Shown: positions 6,619 through 59,222 of the stretch, in pieces
How positions within the stretch are numbered: the stretch's first letter is position 1
Layout of the letters: each line of letters opens with the position of its first letter
NCBI GenBank assembly: GCA_958431155.1
Contig: OY288106.1
Coordinates: forward strand, 1,197,888-1,261,887
Reading direction: 5' to 3'
Length of the DNA stretch: 64,000 nucleotides
Source: an uncultured candidatus Porisulfidus sp.
GTDB taxonomy: Bacteria > Pseudomonadota > Gammaproteobacteria > Poriferisulfidales > Poriferisulfidaceae
Translations under genes and position numbers: made by a program
The notes under the pieces: generated by a model
Seen by the model: the letters and a program-made list of their open reading frames with translations, nothing else
Told to the model about the DNA's origin: nothing
Databases searched by the model: none

Positions 6619-7431
6619 CTACCGCGAATCGAACACAAGAATTTCACCGCGATTCTCCTCCACGCTATCCCCGCAGTAACGTCGATAGCGTCCTCCCATG
6701 TAGACATCATCGACTTCGAAGCCACTCTGCCCAAGGTGACATAGGTAAAACCTGAGAAATGTAGGTCGCAACCAGCAGGAATAAGAGAAGGTCGGGAGCA
6801 ACTCCACCGGCTGAAACGAGACGATCGTTCCGCGCACCATCCCGGCACCTGGGCGGACACCCATTTCATCCATCACAATGATGGTGCCAGCGCGCATGTT
6901 GACTCCGACGAAATCACCCGCCTGACCGCCGACCGCGATCAGACCGTGGCGCATGGCCGAACCCAATTCGTTCTTGACATTGCCGTGAATCAGGATCTCT
7001 CCGCCCATGATTCCCACGCGCTGTCCCCGATAGGCACTGCCCACCATGTGTCCGGCATTGCCCATCACTTCGATTCGTCCGCCACTCATCTCCGGCCCCA
7101 CCCAGTCCGAAGCATCTCCGGAGACACGGATCATTCCACCAGACATCCCGGCGCCGAGGTGCATGCCGGCGGACCCGTTTACGCGGACTTCGCCTTCCGT
7201 CATTCCAGCCCCGATGTACTTGACTCGCGACAAGTCCCCTTCCAAGCGGAGCGAACACTGGCCGTTTCCGGTCACCCGGAAGAAGTCTCCAACCCGCACT
7301 TTGCGGTTGCCGTGCATCATCTCGAGATGCTCAATCCCCGATTGCGACAAGCCCTTGATTTTTGCGGGACTCAGGCACTCTGCCTCGATCGGCACCTCCG
7401 GTGCGGTGACCAGTTCCAGTTCGGTATGCAT
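6619..7431 (-). CDS. fhcC: Formyltransferase/hydrolase complex subunit C (FwdC/FmdC homolog)
   Basis: Repeated G-x-G-M glycine-rich beta-helix motifs (GAGMTEGEVRVNGSAGMHLGAGMSGGMIRVSGDA...) typical of FwdC/GXGXG proteins. Last gene of a co-directional fhc cluster. Confidence 0.8.
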   Translation of the reverse strand: MHTELELVTAPEVPIEAECLSPAKIKGLSQSGIEHLEMMHGNRKVRVGDFFRVTGNGQCSLRLEGDLSRVKYIGAGMTEGEVRVNGSAGMHLGAGMSGGMIRVSGDASDWVGPEMSGGRIEVMGNAGHMVGSAYRGQRVGIMGGEILIHGNVKNELGSAMRHGLIAVGGQAGDFVGVNMRAGTIIVMDEMGVRPGAGMVRGTIVSFQPVELLPTFSYSCWLRPTFLRFYLCHLGQSGFEVDDVYMGGRYRRYCGDSVEENRGEILVFDSR

Positions 7432-53556: not shown

Positions 53557-53868
53557 TCAAGCAAGTTTCTCTCTGTACGGAGCAACCTCGATATCAGCTG
53601 CCTGCTCGCGAGCTTGGGCAATGTCGTAACTGTTCTGCATCCTCAGCAGTGTAGCCATCGATACCCCAAAGGCTTTTTCGATCCGGATCGCCATTTCCGA
53701 CGAAAGGCGCACATGCTCGTGGAGCAATGCAGACAGTGCGGGGCGCGAAACCCCGAGCACCCGCGCTGCGTCGGTCACCGACAAGCCCAGCGGCTCGACA
53801 ATCTCATACCTCACGAATTCTCCCGGGTGGACCGGATTCTTCATTCGAATATTCTGCGTTTTACTCAT
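53557..53868 (-). CDS. HigA-family XRE-type HTH protein (antitoxin-like transcriptional regulator), last gene of the island operon
   Basis: 103 aa. PVHPGEFVRYEIVEPLGLSVTDAARVLGVSRPALSALLHEHVRLSSEMAIRIEKAFGVSMATLLRMQNSYDIAQAR matches the HigA/VapI antidote family. The start overlaps the stop of the 1321-aa gene by 4 bp. Confidence 0.8.
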   Translation of the reverse strand: MSKTQNIRMKNPVHPGEFVRYEIVEPLGLSVTDAARVLGVSRPALSALLHEHVRLSSEMAIRIEKAFGVSMATLLRMQNSYDIAQAREQAADIEVAPYREKLA

Positions 53869-56800
53869 TGCTGATTCCCTGTCCTTCTTACTTTCTCTAT
53901 ATCTTTGCGTATGTCCTCCGCAACTTCTTCAATTTCCCGAGCCACTTTAGGTTCTTTGCCCATTTCCTTTTCAAGCGCAACTGTAAACGGTATAAGTAGT
54001 TTGGCTGATGGCGAAGATTGAACGAAATCGTTGGTATGAGCGGCCCCTTGAGAAACTGTAAAATCGATCAAGGCATATATGGCCTCACTAAGGAGAAATT
54101 CGCAATTGGGTAAGAGCGTGAGTGCCGTTTTAATATCCTGCCCAGCTTGGGGTAAGTCATCACATGCTAGGTGTGCTCGCGATCGAATCAGATAACCCTC
54201 ACACTGGTAGCAACTATAGATTTGCTCCCCATACCGATCAAACAGCAAATTCACCGTATTAATTACCTCATCCAAATGGCCTTGTACTCTTGCACTATTT
54301 GCTAACCGAAGAAAAGCAATAGCAACAGGGTGACGAAGTATGGGATTACTGTTTGTTCCAAAGCGTTGAATCAACTCTTGCCAAACTGCCTTTGCTTGCT
54401 CCTCTTGCCTAAGATCGCTAAGAGCTAGGCCTTTGTAGATTAACATGCGCGCGACTTGGGTATGAAACTGAGGTGCATTTCTGTCGTCGAAGCGTTGCAT
54501 CAGTTGGTCACAAACGGTGATCGTGTCTTCGGGGTAACCCAACTCAAGAAGTGCGGCTCCCTTGTATACAAGGGCCTTCGCAATTGCTTTCAGCATCACA
54601 GGCTTATTGCTACTGCCAAACCGCCGTACAACTTCATCACAGGCGGGAATCGCTTCTTCAAAACGGTTTAATTTAAGGAGTACGCTTGCTTTATTAGTTA
54701 AAGCTTGCACAACAACTCTCAGAATATCAGGCTCATCATTGTCGCCAAACTGCTGTGCAATCTCATCACAGATAATAGCCGCTTCTTCAAACCGATTTGA
54801 CTCATTAAATCTTTGCCCTATATCGAGTAGTAAACGCGCAGCTTGACTACAAATCTCAGGCGCGTCAATACCTCCGCCGAACTGGCGAGCCACTTCACGG
54901 CAAACAGCGATTGCCTGTTCGGAACGATTCAACTCGACAAGCGATTGCACCTTGTTTCCATAAGCATGCGCGACTGCACTAAAAACTTCCGGCACATCAC
55001 TGCTACCAAACTGGCGTATCACTTCGTCACTTACAGTAGCTATCTCTTCAAGGCGATTCAACTCGCCGAGCATGCTTCCTTTATTAGCAAGAGCATGCGC
55101 CACCAGTACAAGCATTTCTGGTTTATCGTTATAGCCGAACAAGTCCACAATCTCGTCACATACAGAAATTGTTTCTTCGAAGTTACCTAACTCGCTAAGC
55201 ACACCACCCTTTTTATATAGTGCCTGTGCTGTAATCTCAAGCAGTTCGGGCATGTCATTGCCACTAAATCGCTGGACAACTTCATCATAGACTACGAGGG
55301 CTTTCCTCGGCTGGTTTAATTTTTCGAGGGCGTTCCCCTTTTCGGTCAATGCCTGGGCAACCACTCTAAGAACTGCCGGCACACCAGTGTCACCAAAGCG
55401 TTGCTCAATCTCGTCACACACAGAAATTGTTTCTTCGAAGTTACCTAACTCGCTAAGCACATCACCCTTTTTAAACAGTGCCTGTGCTGTAATCTCAAGC
55501 AGTTCGGGCATGTCATTGCCACTAAATCGCTGGACAACTTCACCATAGACTACAAGGGCTTTTTCCGGCTGGTTTAATTTTTCGAGGGCGTTCCCCTTTT
55601 CGGTCAATGCCTGGGCAACCACTCTAAGAACTGCTGGCACATCAGTGTCACCAAAGCGTTGCTCAATCTCATCATAGGCGTCGATTGTTTCTTTGGGCTG
55701 ATTTAATTTGATCAGCGTAAGCCCTTTGAAAAAGATAGCCCTCGCGACCTGCTCGACGATCTTCGGTAGATTACTGTCACTGAATCGGTTGACAACCTCA
55801 TCATAAGCCGCGATTTCTTTATCCGGTTGACCTAATGCGTGAAGTGAAACCCCTTTGCTAATCAAAGCTAGTGCGACTTGTTCATGAATCTCAGATACTT
55901 CACTTTCGCCAAATCGACGTACGACCTCATCACAAACGATAATTGCCTCATCGAGCCGATTCGAACTTGCAAGAGTACGTGCTTTAGTTGTAAGGGCCTG
56001 CGCCACTATCTCTAGAACGGCTGGCACTTTACTGTCACCAAACCGGAGCACTACCTCGTCATGGGATACAAGTTCCTCGTCATATTGCTTCGATATGCCG
56101 AGCGTAACACCTTTCAACAAGAGAGCATTAGCAACCTGCTTAGCGAGTTGAGGAGCGTCACTGTCATCGAACTGCCGTGCAATTGTTTCACAAGCGACAA
56201 TCGTTTCCCCGGGTCGTTCCATTTTTAGAAACGAAATACCTGCAGTAATAATTTCTTTTGCCGCCTCCACACGAGCCGACAGCGAATCGTCTATTTCCAA
56301 ACGTTTTAATGTGGAACGAATGATTGCGTCTATGTTTTTCGCTTGACCCTCTTCGGCCACTACGGAGGCTTGCTTAATAGAAACCTTCGCAGGTACTTGC
56401 CCAGCAAGTTTTGTCACATACTGTGGAGAATGTGTGATCGGTCCTAGATTGTCTAGTTTTAATTTGAGAGAAACAGAGTCTGCGGCATCCTCAGACGCAA
56501 CCTTTGGATCAAAACTTTCCGCAAACTCCTCGGGAACAATCGACAATAACTCCTCACGATATTCGGCGAGTACAGGAAGGTCAATCAATTTAATAAACGC
56601 AGCCTGATGAAATGGCATTATCTCCGGCTCCAAGCCATCTGTCTCCCGGATCATGCGGGAAACCAAATCCTTGAGCTGAATCGCCGAATAATATGCATCC
56701 ATGAAGCGAATAAGGGCTTCAATCATTGGTGTTGGTGTTCGGGAACGTCGTAGCAGGTAGTAGATGTTATAGAGTCGCTCTGTCAGATAGTACAGTTTCC

Positions 56801-57830
56801 GCCGAGCCCCACCGCCGACGACCTCTACCGCTCCCCGTTCTACCAAACGGCGAAGCTGAGCACTACTTTGACTAGCATCAAGTCGAGTTCGAGTCGCAAC
56901 TTGACGCGCACTCGCTGGCTCCCACAAATCAGCGAGCGCCAAATACACGCGCCTTTCCTGAGGAGCAAGTACTTCTATGTGGCTCTTAAAGTACTCGGTC
57001 AGATCATCGATTAGCTCCATCAAGTCTGCCATGAAGTCGCGAAACGACAACTCAGCCCCGAATCGGGCAACGATAGAAAGGAGCCTAGGACTACCTCCGG
57101 TAAGAATCTGCAATCCGCGCATTGTCTCTGGGGGGCGATGTTGGCCGGAGACATGCTTCCACAGAACTGCGCATTCCTCTATGCAAAGAGGACGTAAAGT
57201 TTGACTTACAAGAAGATCATAGAAAGCGTGGTTGGATTTATCAATCTCATCAAAGCGAGCGGTCGCACTAGCCAACAGAATGATCCGGGGCTCTGTTTGA
57301 AGGACTTGGCGCAATTGCCACCCAGCATCTGGGTCTGACATGTCCCTGAACATCATGTTCAAGTTCTCAACGATCAAAATGAGTCGTTTCTTTTGCTGGC
57401 TTGAGAAGTCCAGAAGAGAACTAAGACAACGTTTACCGAGCATCCGATCATCGGGAGTATTCCGCAGTTCTTCAACGGTGAGGCTTAGGTTATCTTCCCC
57501 TTCCGGGTACTGTGCTTGATCTGCCAATCGAGACAAAGCTTCCAGCCAGAATTCACCTGCGGTAGCAACTTCGTAACTTTCTTCTGCAAAAACGATCGGG
57601 AAAAAAGAAGATGATAGTGCGGGGTCCCGGCGAATCTCAGCCGCTACTCGAAGGAGAAGGCTGGTCTTACCACAACCACGGGGGCCGATCACCAATCGGT
57701 GTGGGTTTGAATTTCTATCGCATTCGCGCAACATTTCAACAATCGACGCGAATTCATGCGTCCGCACGCAAAATGATGCAATCAACTCATCATCAGTAAG
57801 AAAACCAGGGTTATATTTCACTGTTTTCAT
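53865..57830 (-). CDS. STAND-like P-loop NTPase (AAA_16/PF01637-type ATPase) fused to a large array of about 43-residue alpha-helical tandem repeats; no recognisable effector domain
   Basis: 1321 aa. N-terminus FCVRTHEFASIVEMLRE...RLVIGPRGCGKTSLLLRV (Walker A) and LILIVENLNMM (Walker B-like), then a helical/winged-helix region. Residues about 520-1150 are about 15 repeats of xxVxRFGDSDVPxxLxxVAxALxxKGxxLxxLNRxEEAIxVCDE. GC about 47-50%, against about 62% in flanking DNA. Confidence 0.75.
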   Translation of the reverse strand: MKTVKYNPGFLTDDELIASFCVRTHEFASIVEMLRECDRNSNPHRLVIGPRGCGKTSLLLRVAAEIRRDPALSSSFFPIVFAEESYEVATAGEFWLEALSRLADQAQYPEGEDNLSLTVEELRNTPDDRMLGKRCLSSLLDFSSQQKKRLILIVENLNMMFRDMSDPDAGWQLRQVLQTEPRIILLASATARFDEIDKSNHAFYDLLVSQTLRPLCIEECAVLWKHVSGQHRPPETMRGLQILTGGSPRLLSIVARFGAELSFRDFMADLMELIDDLTEYFKSHIEVLAPQERRVYLALADLWEPASARQVATRTRLDASQSSAQLRRLVERGAVEVVGGGARRKLYYLTERLYNIYYLLRRSRTPTPMIEALIRFMDAYYSAIQLKDLVSRMIRETDGLEPEIMPFHQAAFIKLIDLPVLAEYREELLSIVPEEFAESFDPKVASEDAADSVSLKLKLDNLGPITHSPQYVTKLAGQVPAKVSIKQASVVAEEGQAKNIDAIIRSTLKRLEIDDSLSARVEAAKEIITAGISFLKMERPGETIVACETIARQFDDSDAPQLAKQVANALLLKGVTLGISKQYDEELVSHDEVVLRFGDSKVPAVLEIVAQALTTKARTLASSNRLDEAIIVCDEVVRRFGESEVSEIHEQVALALISKGVSLHALGQPDKEIAAYDEVVNRFSDSNLPKIVEQVARAIFFKGLTLIKLNQPKETIDAYDEIEQRFGDTDVPAVLRVVAQALTEKGNALEKLNQPEKALVVYGEVVQRFSGNDMPELLEITAQALFKKGDVLSELGNFEETISVCDEIEQRFGDTGVPAVLRVVAQALTEKGNALEKLNQPRKALVVYDEVVQRFSGNDMPELLEITAQALYKKGGVLSELGNFEETISVCDEIVDLFGYNDKPEMLVLVAHALANKGSMLGELNRLEEIATVSDEVIRQFGSSDVPEVFSAVAHAYGNKVQSLVELNRSEQAIAVCREVARQFGGGIDAPEICSQAARLLLDIGQRFNESNRFEEAAIICDEIAQQFGDNDEPDILRVVVQALTNKASVLLKLNRFEEAIPACDEVVRRFGSSNKPVMLKAIAKALVYKGAALLELGYPEDTITVCDQLMQRFDDRNAPQFHTQVARMLIYKGLALSDLRQEEQAKAVWQELIQRFGTNSNPILRHPVAIAFLRLANSARVQGHLDEVINTVNLLFDRYGEQIYSCYQCEGYLIRSRAHLACDDLPQAGQDIKTALTLLPNCEFLLSEAIYALIDFTVSQGAAHTNDFVQSSPSAKLLIPFTVALEKEMGKEPKVAREIEEVAEDIRKDIEKVRRTGNQQ
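55151..55666. repeat. Near-perfect 258-bp tandem duplication, two copies, inside the repeat-array coding region
   Basis: 55151-55408 and 55409-55666 differ at only about 10 positions (about 96% identity). Each copy encodes two consecutive 43-aa repeats (FGDTDVPAVLRVVAQALTEKGNALEKLNQP[E/R]KALVVY[G/D]EVVQRFSGNDMPELLEITAQAL[F/Y]KKG.VLSELGNFEETISVCDEIEQR). Confidence 0.85.
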
Positions 57831-57853: not shown

Positions 57854-59107
57854 CTAACGAGACATAATTGGGATAAAGTTTTGTCCATACCGAACGCTCC
57901 ACCAGTCTTCAAGCAGACCTGAAATGAAACGGTAACCGCCGCTTTGCCTTTCCAGATACCCATCATGTTCAAGCAAATAAAGCACATCTTCGATAATAAC
58001 CGGATGGGCTCCGGCTTTGACCTCTGCTCTGAGGTGGCGACTGTACTGGTCAATCACGTCATCACTAAGTAAACCACCACCCACGGCAGCCTCCGTCAGC
58101 AATTCCAGAGCAACTCGGTATTCTTCTGTCCTCAGCACCACCCGCAACCGTCCTTGATAATGCTCTAAATCCACCTGCCCCCGCACAGATAGCATTTCAT
58201 TTTCGTATACCTGATCCACATCGTTCAACGAAGCCCGAGTCCGATTTTCACGTCGTAGGTGTTCATGCAGGTACCCGAAAAACTGTTGTATGTGATGCGG
58301 TACATGACACCGCAGACGGCGGCACATGGCCATACGAATGTCAGGGGGAAGCCCGAGCCCATACGCTTCTGCCAATTCGGCAAGGCAGGAAGACGCAGTG
58401 TCTTCGCTCCACGGTTTCAAATCGCAGGGTGCAAAAATGTTTACCTGTGCACTGAGTCCCGCCTGTCGCAGGATAGGCTCCAAACCCACGCTGCCGGAAA
58501 CAATCAGAACGATGCGCCCACGATGCCTCTGGGCGTTCTTTCTCAACCAGCTTAGAAATTTGTCCGTTGCCCGCTTGCCTTCGGTCGTTATATCGTCGCC
58601 ATTCTCTCGTAGCAACCGGCTAACAAAAATTGGCAACTCATCAATGGCCAGCACAACCCGCTGATTATTTTCCGCAAGAGCCGCAATAATATCGTCGCCT
58701 TTACGCCACTGGTTTCCTGCGGCAATTCCTGCGCGCAACTGTACCTGCAATTCTGAGATAGATACGTTATCCACTCGCCCCCCGATCTCCTTCAGGGCGT
58801 TAGAAAAACCAAGCCGGATCCGGCGCCATGCCCCTTTGAGCGATCTGGATTGGGCACCGATTTCGGCGATGGCATCCGCAGGATCAGAAGCATCCTCAAG
58901 ATCAACAAAGATCGTTTCAAATGTCCCTTCCTCTGCCAAGCGCCGCAATAACTCCCTGACTAGGCTCGTTTTTCCCATGCGCCGCGGCGCGGTGATCAGC
59001 GTATGAATTCCATCCCTTGCACGTTCGGAAAGCACTTCAAGTTCTTCGCCCCGATTATAGAAACGGTCTCCATCCACCCAATTTGCCCCTGCTTTTCTCA
59101 ATGACAT
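57854..59107 (-). CDS. AAA+ ATPase (PF01637 'archaeal ATPase'-type) with C-terminal DUF234 domain; first gene of the island operon
   Basis: 417 aa. FYNRGEELEVLSERARDGIHTLITAPRRMGKTSLVREL (F.GRE.EL motif plus Walker A), VLAIDELPIF (Walker B), and a C-terminal ...YLERQSGGYRFISGLLEDWW that matches the DUF234 Y.F.DP.f..W terminus. It is a paralog of the N-terminal ATPase of the downstream 1321-aa gene. Confidence 0.7.
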   Translation of the reverse strand: MSLRKAGANWVDGDRFYNRGEELEVLSERARDGIHTLITAPRRMGKTSLVRELLRRLAEEGTFETIFVDLEDASDPADAIAEIGAQSRSLKGAWRRIRLGFSNALKEIGGRVDNVSISELQVQLRAGIAAGNQWRKGDDIIAALAENNQRVVLAIDELPIFVSRLLRENGDDITTEGKRATDKFLSWLRKNAQRHRGRIVLIVSGSVGLEPILRQAGLSAQVNIFAPCDLKPWSEDTASSCLAELAEAYGLGLPPDIRMAMCRRLRCHVPHHIQQFFGYLHEHLRRENRTRASLNDVDQVYENEMLSVRGQVDLEHYQGRLRVVLRTEEYRVALELLTEAAVGGGLLSDDVIDQYSRHLRAEVKAGAHPVIIEDVLYLLEHDGYLERQSGGYRFISGLLEDWWSVRYGQNFIPIMSR

Positions 59108-59117
59108 AGCCTTTTCC

Positions 59118-59161
59118 CAACGAATTCGTTGCCATCATTATAGTTGGCAACGAATTCGTTG
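59118..59161. promoter_or_regulatory. Two copies of the perfect 14-bp palindrome CAACGAATTCGTTG, 30 bp apart, immediately upstream of the island operon start; candidate operator
   Basis: Copies at 59118-59131 and 59148-59161. The second extends to TTGGCAACGAATTCGTTGTCAA, a 22-bp near-palindrome. The first copy overlaps the presumptive RBS of the 57854..59107 gene. Confidence 0.5.
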
Positions 59162-59222
59162 TCAAGATCTGTCATACTCTTCGGATTTTCTCTAGTAATC
59201 GAGAGCCTTTATCTGTTCTTTC

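Follow-up and report, generated by a model that had tools for sequence, protein, structure and literature searches.

The window analyzed here, a stretch of 64,000 nucleotides from an uncultured candidatus Porisulfidus sp. (contig OY288106.1; window coordinates 1-64,000), carries an island with a GC content of 0.46-0.52, against 0.57-0.63 in its flanks, with genes for an ABC-transporter permease and a phosphate-binding-protein-like product on either side. The island holds a three-gene operon, read on the minus strand, that encodes a P-loop ATPase, a STAND-type nucleoside triphosphatase (NTPase) and a small helix-turn-helix (HTH) protein of the HigA family. We describe the array of palindromic sites interlaced with the promoter of this operon, its inheritance together with the first two genes, and the proteins that might read it. 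The genes and the features of the array are:

53557-53868, minus strand: gene 3, a HigA-family HTH_3 protein of 103 amino acids, joined to gene 2 by an ATGA overlap (53865-53868) and translationally coupled to it
53865-57830, minus strand: gene 2, a STAND-type NTPase of 1321 amino acids with an AAA_16 domain, a helical domain, a MarR/TrmB-like winged helix (residues about 288-350) and TPR repeats
57854-59107, minus strand: gene 1, a P-loop ATPase of 417 amino acids, of the archaeal ATPase_2 type, with nucleotide-binding, helical and C-terminal winged-helix domains
59110-59118, minus strand: Shine-Dalgarno-like sequence GGGAAAAGG, directly after unit 3, with the ATG at 59107-59105
59118-59131, no strand: operator unit 3, the proximal exact palindrome, over the predicted transcription start and the first ~14 nt of the leader
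59133-59146, minus strand: operator unit 2, CAAC-TATAAT-GATG (CAACTATAATGATG), degenerate, matching the half-sites at 7 of 8 bases and centered on the -10 hexamer (its middle 6 bp)
59137-59142, minus strand: -10 hexamer TATAAT, inside unit 2
59148-59161, no strand: operator unit 1, the distal exact palindrome CAACGAATTCGTTG, overlapping the -35 hexamer and the spacer
59160-59165, minus strand: -35 hexamer TTGACA, whose last two bases are the first two of unit 1
59118-59161, no strand: 44-bp composite palindrome, with 17-nt arms (59118-59134 and 59145-59161) that are 100% complementary around a 10-nt center, ACTATAATGA

An earlier note on this DNA had pointed to two perfect 14-bp palindromes containing GAATTC in the promoter region of the operon, the distal one embedded in a 22-bp near-palindrome, and had noticed the motif nowhere else in the window. 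Both copies of CAACGAATTCGTTG are exact (59118-59131 and 59148-59161), inverted-repeat analysis recovers the 22-bp near-palindrome, and the 64 kb contain neither a further exact copy nor any exact CAAC-N6-GTTG site besides these two. What the note missed is the count, since a third, degenerate unit lies between the two palindromes (59133-59146); the array thus comprises three CAAC-N6-GTTG units with a 15-bp period, interlaced with the promoter. The proximal palindrome does lie close to the start codon, 10 nt from the ATG, but it merely abuts GGGAAAAGG, whereas the note had it overlapping the ribosome-binding site. On the minus strand, the intergenic region reads TTGACA-ACGAATTCGTTGCCAAC-TATAAT-GATGG-CAACGAATTCGTTG-GGAAAAGGCT-ATG. 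Its two hexamers, 17 nt apart, match the sigma-70 consensus at 12 of 12 positions (59165-59137), so that canonical TTGACA and TATAAT elements, a spacing within 16-18 bp and a position upstream of a gene are all present, and the placement of the element in the promoter region of the low-GC operon is borne out. Transcription is predicted to start at about 59129-59131, as placed from the -10 hexamer, and the half-site centers are 10 bp apart within each unit. Palindromic sites over the -35 hexamer and spacer, the -10 hexamer and the predicted +1 position are, read from the letters, the anatomy of a putative repressor operator.

Two other candidates were considered and set aside. The sole further match to CAACGAATTCGTTG at up to two mismatches (54020-54033) falls in the coding region of the STAND gene. 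With that tolerance, shuffled sequences yield 0.33 matches; since about 24 sites with at most one half-site mismatch are expected by chance per 64 kb, we treat it as a chance match. A sigma-54 reading of the TGGCA...TTGC sequence was rejected because its GG-to-GC offset is 15 nt rather than 12.

Homologues of the ATPase number more than 2,251 among 8,000 scored candidates, the best 120 of which are 60-86% identical. We compared the window with 82 homologous loci (83 including the window itself), namely 80 taken from one genome per species and two closer metagenome loci. By their record labels, these loci belong to at least eight groups: Pseudomonadota, Latescibacterota, Binatia, Chloroflexota, Acidobacteriota, Gemmatimonadota, Spirochaetota and Thermodesulfobacteriota. 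At all 82, the ATPase gene is followed directly by a STAND-TPR homologue, and the resulting two-gene cassettes form small low-GC islets in otherwise unrelated neighborhoods. At least one site with no more than one mismatch lies within 110 bp upstream in 81 of the 83 loci, and at least two such sites in 79; one apparent exception (L016) is due to a mis-set start codon. Exact sites are 565-fold enriched in front of the cassettes, with 143 in 9,130 bp of upstream DNA compared with 33 in 1.19 Mb of flanks. The earlier note had allowed that the motif might turn out to be a common repeat of the repetitive extragenic palindromic (REP) kind. This is not the case: the two exact copies in the 64 kb are both at the promoter, and the 1.19 Mb of related flanks stand at background outside the cassettes.

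The conserved parts of this upstream DNA are few and strictly spaced. Across the 83 loci it cannot be aligned save for the units, the -35 hexamer and a GGgaa before the ATG, while neighboring sites are exactly 15 bp apart in 113 of 123 cases; counted in strict register, the arrays comprise two units at 40 loci, three at 32, four at six and five at two. The position weight matrix reads T-G-[C/G]-C-A-A-C-[A/G]-A-w-w-T-[T/C]-G-T-T-G, with 1.5-2.0 bits at each of the eight half-site positions and 0.4-0.9 bits at the central six, and such a combination of strong half-sites with a weak center is the pattern expected of a putative dimeric HTH site. The weak constraint on the center also means that the GAATTC (an EcoRI site) of the window is incidental, as the central 6 bp vary among homologous loci and keep only a RAWWTY preference. 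Within the arrays, the last, proximal unit is the most conserved in the family (1.6-2.0 bits at half-site positions), and the center of the penultimate unit is AT-rich (consensus aatatt) and serves as the -10 hexamer. A TTGACA element 16-19 bp upstream of that center is perfect in 43 of 80 loci and matches at five or more of six positions in 55; in 41 of the 80, 9-11 nt separate the last unit from the start codon, and a G comes right after that unit in 96%. At one locus (L038, ~6,900-7,000), at least five tandem 15-bp units have their left half-site changed from CAAC to AAAC or AAAG (GGAAACAAATTCGTTG repeated), as if the array had been amplified locally and had degenerated.

The few sites found away from the primary promoters also lead back to the cassette. 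Most of the exact sites that occur in tandem among the 33 in the flanks precede second copies of the cassette; these second arrays, a few kb downstream from the primary copy, have T/A rather than C/G as junction base. At L064 (12144-12172) the second array precedes a divergent but full paralogous pair (37% and 36% identity), at L025 (13806-13860) an internally deleted ATPase and a 571-amino-acid STAND protein without TPRs, at L018 (13865-13895) a 583-amino-acid STAND nucleotide-binding/winged-helix protein with no ATPase gene between, and at L014 (12121-12165) cassette remnants. We also searched metagenome contigs in the reverse direction, for three exact units (24 specified bases), and at least 120 loci are listed. 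An ATPase homologue starts 0-60 nt downstream of the array in 57 of these 120 matches, with identities of 30-69% (median 40%). The remaining listed matches are 36 coding-type 15-nt tandem repeats, 11 contig ends and 16 others, so that ATPase-linked arrays make up 57 of 73 once tandem repeats and contig ends are set aside. The enrichment, the second copies and the reverse search together describe a site that is co-inherited with its gene across distant hosts and absent elsewhere.

The 16 other matches include orphan arrays and an ArsR-type gene with a similar site. In two orphan arrays (L180, 1374-1417; L189, 2531-2574), TTGACA-17-TATCAT and three units are followed by no long open reading frame, and these arrays are possibly remnants of lost cassettes. 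At four loci (L200, L212, L245 and L275, for example 10322-10365 of L275), a recurring array, CAACCGATCGGTTG-A-CAACAGGGTCGTTG-T-CAACCGTTCAGTTG, adjoins a gene starting MVDQLSQVFGALADPTRRDMV; judged by eye, this gene would encode an ArsR/SmtB-type HTH protein, a winged-helix regulator that is unrelated but whose half-sites are similar and share the 15-bp phasing. In the metagenome clade at about 40% identity, the promoter consists of an A-tract, TTGAC(a), 17 nt and cGATAATta, and the array starts 2 nt after the -10 hexamer. It is shifted relative to the promoter yet is still promoter-proximal, as operators are. A two-unit scan of viral contigs gave 72 matches, none adjoining a cassette homologue. 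Most are 15-nt (5-codon) repeats in coding sequence or matches by chance, and their neighbors, an amidase gene, RusA and unknown genes, are uninformative. The cassette is thus not phage-borne in the viral-contig collection scanned.

The two conserved proteins are distinct NTPases with a winged helix each. The 1321-amino-acid protein combines a P-loop NTPase, a helical domain, a winged helix and a C-terminal repeat sensor, the architecture of a STAND NTPase, and the model of its N-terminal part (predicted local distance difference test score 76.5) places the winged helix at residues about 288-350. A confident model of the ATPase has a canonical winged helix of the helix-strand-helix-helix-wing type at residues 327-394, followed by a basic C-terminal tail. 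Both resemble Orc1/Cdc6 structurally, including the DNA-bound heterodimer 2qby, and in a profile-profile comparison only their P-loop regions align, so that they are not recent duplicates of each other. Pfam, NCBIfam and PADLOC have no model that names either NTPase. Scans of the cassette proteins with Pfam and NCBIfam revealed no nuclease, protease, TIR or SIR2 domain, PADLOC returned nothing significant beyond weak P-loop-level matches (mad8, E ~1e-5; best E 3.5e-05), and a search of PDB sequences with the ATPase profile gave no match. The TPR region of the STAND gene (54703-56065, minus strand) contains DNA-level tandem repeats of 129 nt (43 amino acids), with some 258-nt double units 86-91% identical, and STAND homologues range from ~700 to 1660 amino acids; this suggests that the predicted sensor repeats expand and contract rapidly.

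We favor the reading in which the array is an operator for negative autoregulation and the cassette itself supplies its probable reader, a winged-helix domain, with the MarR-like one of the STAND protein as the most likely candidate. Anatomy, conservation, linkage to the cassette and the lack of HigA in relatives are read directly from the sequences; protein binding, the identity of the binder and the sign of regulation we infer. Since the array follows the cassette across phyla and through varied neighborhoods, the trans-acting factor should be cassette-encoded, and the positions of the sites over -35, -10 and +1 argue for repression; inverted repeats cover the core promoter and start of what would be the regulator's own operon. 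In the proposed mechanism, the promoter-operator module (59118-59165) travels with the two-gene cassette of ATPase and STAND-TPR protein, and dimers of a cassette-encoded winged-helix protein would occupy the units, one per unit, contacting a single face of the DNA helix, since half-site centers are 10 bp apart. Binding would occlude RNA polymerase, and a very strong, host-independent promoter would be held down by its own product. The reader would most likely be the STAND winged helix (residues ~288-350), with its conserved basic RRK wing, possibly acting with the ATPase on DNA in the manner of an Orc1/Cdc6 heterodimer (Orc1-1/Orc1-3). The sequence of the STAND winged helix is nearly invariant (QERRVYLALADLW.PA...E.A.R.RL..S..SAQL.RL.ERG.V.V.GG..RRK.YYLTERLYNIYY), with an (E/Q)(I/V)A.R.RL segment; its wing is basic and its helix 3 is polar to basic. 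One source labels a homologue as a MarR-family regulator, and we also count in favor of the STAND protein the second array of L018, which precedes a STAND-type gene but no ATPase gene.

Several observations weigh against this reading. The STAND winged helix aligns to the DNA-binding winged HTH domain of MarR/EmrR (2fa5) only weakly (E 0.033), its match to TrmB (22.6 bits) is below the cut-off of 25.6, and those to Penicillinase_R and DUF7342 are also weak; moreover, it is at the same time the generic winged-helix domain of a STAND module, which usually does not read DNA. The L018 genome also has a full cassette, from which an ATPase could act in trans, and the ATPase winged helix is conserved as well, though its helix 3 is acidic (IEDVL.VLEHDGYLE). 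At L006 the genes are intact and the array is truly absent. Since the transcript of the ~40%-identity clade includes the entire array, a role at the RNA level is possible for that clade, and dimer binding by itself does not account for the exact complementarity between arms in 12 of 40 loci. Covariation could not separate the candidate readers, because both winged helices and the half-sites are conserved in the paralogues at 36-40% identity.

The earlier note had tentatively assigned the palindromes to the 103-amino-acid protein: a HigA/XRE dimer would bind the two 14-bp palindromes and autoregulate the operon. That the last gene of the operon encodes a genuine HigA-family HTH protein is correct (TIGR02607, 96.2 bits against a cut-off of 47.7; HTH_3), higA shares the transcript of the operon and is coupled in translation to the STAND gene, and it is established that HigA proteins bind paired palindromes in their own promoters. 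However, 81 of 83 loci have the array, but a tblastn search at E ≤ 1e-3 over ±7 kb detects HigA in only two, the window and L001. Four other loci lack, in their lists of genes, a small HTH_3 gene beside the cassette, and none of the 120 array-bearing metagenome loci listed has a HigA homologue. The closest relative, L001, which shares the flanking permease gene of the window, has an 86%-identical HigA and different central hexamers, so that nothing in the site tracks HigA. There is also no HigB partner: higA overlaps the stop codon of the STAND gene, and the STAND protein has no HigB/RelE domain in the Pfam scan. With HigA in one of 82 relatives and none of the listed metagenome loci, its role as the binder is unsupported and we consider it extremely improbable. 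The element does not belong to the class of HigA operators, for although a HigA gene is in the operon, two defining features, an adjacent HigB and co-occurrence of operator and regulator, fail; the 103-amino-acid HigA is a lineage-specific addition and neither a conserved part of the cassette nor the conserved reader of the array. The feedback control of a potentially harmful NTPase system that the note had envisaged is plausible, but its agent is probably a different protein, and the case corrects an attractive but mistaken inference, by which the nearest HTH gene is taken for the regulator. A better placed candidate is the 417-amino-acid ATPase, which might read the array through its C-terminal winged helix, as archaeal Orc1/Cdc6 does on ORB, and repress its own promoter. 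Its gene is the first after the array at every locus, it is the most conserved cassette protein (58-86% identity), its model combines a canonical winged helix (327-394) with a basic C-terminal tail, and the array tracks ATPase homologues down to 30% identity. On the other hand, helix 3 of this winged helix is acidic and without typical base-contacting residues, the protein has no sequence similarity to DNA-binding winged HTH families and no PDB sequence match, and the second array of L018 precedes a STAND-type gene in the absence of an ATPase gene; we therefore regard the ATPase as a rather unlikely reader.

Two further explanations dispense with a repressor or shift the function to a folded structure. 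The conserved bases could be promoter elements of overlapping promoters, or chance, and the geometry is indeed exact: with the 15-bp period, the -35-like hexamer TTGNCA found where two units meet is 17 nt upstream of the center of the next-but-one unit. Unit centers are AT-rich as well. But conservation peaks in the final unit, which follows the -10 hexamer and plays no part in sigma-70 recognition, and neither the CAAC nor the GTTG beside the -10 hexamer counts as a promoter determinant. The ~40%-identity clade has a separate TTGAC-17-GATAAT promoter with all three units located after it, and the 565-fold enrichment excludes chance; we consider this account highly improbable. The functional unit could instead be a DNA stem-loop or cruciform, or an RNA hairpin, in which the outer units pair and expose the -10 hexamer in the loop, giving a promoter that would respond to supercoiling or work on single-stranded DNA, for instance when the element enters a new host. 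As single-stranded DNA, the window's perfect 17-bp arms and 10-nt loop fold at -20.5 kcal/mol (z = -8.45) with TATAAT in the loop. In 12 of the 40 loci with at least three units (window included), the units that flank the -10 unit are exact inverted repeats, variable center included, whereas 2,000 shuffles average 0.79 such loci and never exceed 6. As nine of these 12 are not self-palindromic, the relation is inverted rather than direct; bases off the half-site consensus are compensated (CAACAGGTTTATTG with CAATAAACCTGTTG at L048; CAGC...GTTG with CAAC...GCTG at L030); and the feature is rarer, at 4 of 57, in the clade with the -10 hexamer outside the array (Fisher p = 0.004). Yet arm complementarity is absent in 28 of the 40 loci with three or more units and in all two-unit loci, while the half-sites are near-invariant everywhere, so that the conserved function does not depend on the symmetry; a structure under selection, moreover, would not look like this, with variable loops on invariant stems. 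Nor does the array resemble a structured RNA leader or riboswitch: Rfam has no match at E ≤ 1, the hairpin of the leader RNA is not significant (z = -0.21), and the stems are invariant rather than covarying. Template switching in replication, a neutral process, perfects quasi-palindromes and could yield arm symmetry as a by-product of closely spaced palindromic sites. A hairpin as the functional unit is in our judgment very unlikely, and for the symmetry itself a cruciform or single-stranded-DNA promoter, neutral template switching and shared ancestry are all possible origins.

It is tempting to combine these elements, although we consider the following picture quite unlikely as a whole. The cassette would be a self-contained, horizontally mobile sensor-regulator, in which two Orc1/Cdc6-like NTPases read the 15-bp-phased array through their own winged helices and capture of a ligand by the TPRs switches their oligomeric state to fire a silenced promoter; in the main clade, the arms would in addition allow a cruciform or single-stranded-DNA promoter, with the -10 hexamer in the loop, upon DNA entry or a change in supercoiling. 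If this were true, a STAND/NLR-like protein would act as a direct sequence-specific DNA-binding switch without a dedicated DNA-binding domain.

The genomic surroundings of the cassette are varied. Genes for OLD/AbiEii-type AAA_15/AAA_21 ATPases or toxin-antitoxin pairs (RelB-like, Phd/PIN) adjoin some cassettes (L014, 12551-14017; L155, 5803-7104; L156, 1914-2412 and 15528-16192), others have housekeeping genes around them, for instance mutL-miaA-hfq-hflX at L002, and one neighborhood has ankyrin- and TPR-repeat genes. In the window, no att-like direct repeats were found to flank the island and no integrase was seen at the islet, and a megablast search of a plasmid collection with the island gave no match. 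Almost all genome matches among loci L003-L082 are metagenome-assembled genomes, with bin names such as APA_bin, RHO2_bin and Langseth_MAG and lineages including Latescibacterota, Binatia, Rariloculaceae, Dehalococcoidia and Vicinamibacterales. Judged by names only, many of them look like marine-sponge symbionts, and the ~40%-identity metagenome clade seems to come from other samples than these.

The array provides a signature of a large uncharacterized family, spread over at least eight phyla and more than 2,251 ATPase homologues, and since neither protein is named by current models, the motif could mark this family for annotation pipelines. It also offers an experimental handle on whether a STAND/NLR-like NTPase reads DNA via its own winged helix. 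Literature searches on the motif, the cassette and STAND or winged-helix operators returned no description, and a preprint on Avs systems, checked for two-gene or accessory-ATPase architectures, contains no counterpart.

The array would work like an autoregulatory operator of the MarR or antitoxin type. Among the known systems close to it are the MarR-family operators, for example those of MarR on sites I and II of marO, where a winged-helix dimer binds two or more short palindromes over the -35/-10 region and the start and ribosome-binding site of its own operon in negative autoregulation. In contrast to MarR, a stand-alone repressor of ~150 amino acids, the candidate winged helix lies inside a 1321-amino-acid STAND NTPase, its similarity to MarR is marginal (E 0.033), and the array is strictly phased at 15 bp, with two to five units and the -10 hexamer inside one of them. 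The operators of higBA are likewise paired palindromes over a promoter, with a HigA-family gene in the operon; here, however, HigB is missing, HigA is the last gene and belongs to no two-gene toxin-antitoxin unit, and the operator occurs in ~140 related loci without HigA. The STAND transcription factors MalT and AfsR (SARP-LAL) differ in being activators with a separate LuxR-type or SARP DNA-binding domain, none of which was found here, whereas the site positions of the array argue for repression and a second, sensor-less NTPase is always encoded upstream. With respect to the Orc1/Cdc6 heterodimer on ORB (2qby), the target here is a promoter and not an origin, and its sequence does not resemble ORB elements. 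The archaeal ATPase_2 proteins 2qen and 2fna are among the closest known to the cassette ATPase, and to our knowledge DNA binding by the ATPase_2 family is not established. Parallels also exist with Avs and NLR-like defense systems, which share the STAND NTPase, a long, fast-varying TPR sensor, the setting in a low-GC islet and, occasionally, OLD-type ATPase or toxin-antitoxin genes nearby; strong promoters kept under tight repression are typical of costly defense genes. Unlike Avs and defense operons with repressors of the CapW/BrxR type, the cassette has no recognized effector domain and no conserved separate regulator of the WYL or XRE type. The regulatory logic is therefore conventional, and promoter-overlapping operators are ordinary; what sets this array apart is its phasing, the placement of the -10 hexamer within one unit, its tie to an uncharacterized pair of NTPases that crosses phyla, and its probable reading by a winged helix that is part of the STAND protein. 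Its combination of an A-tract, TTGACA and a -10 hexamer embedded in an operator amounts to a portable design for a strong, presumably tightly repressed promoter.

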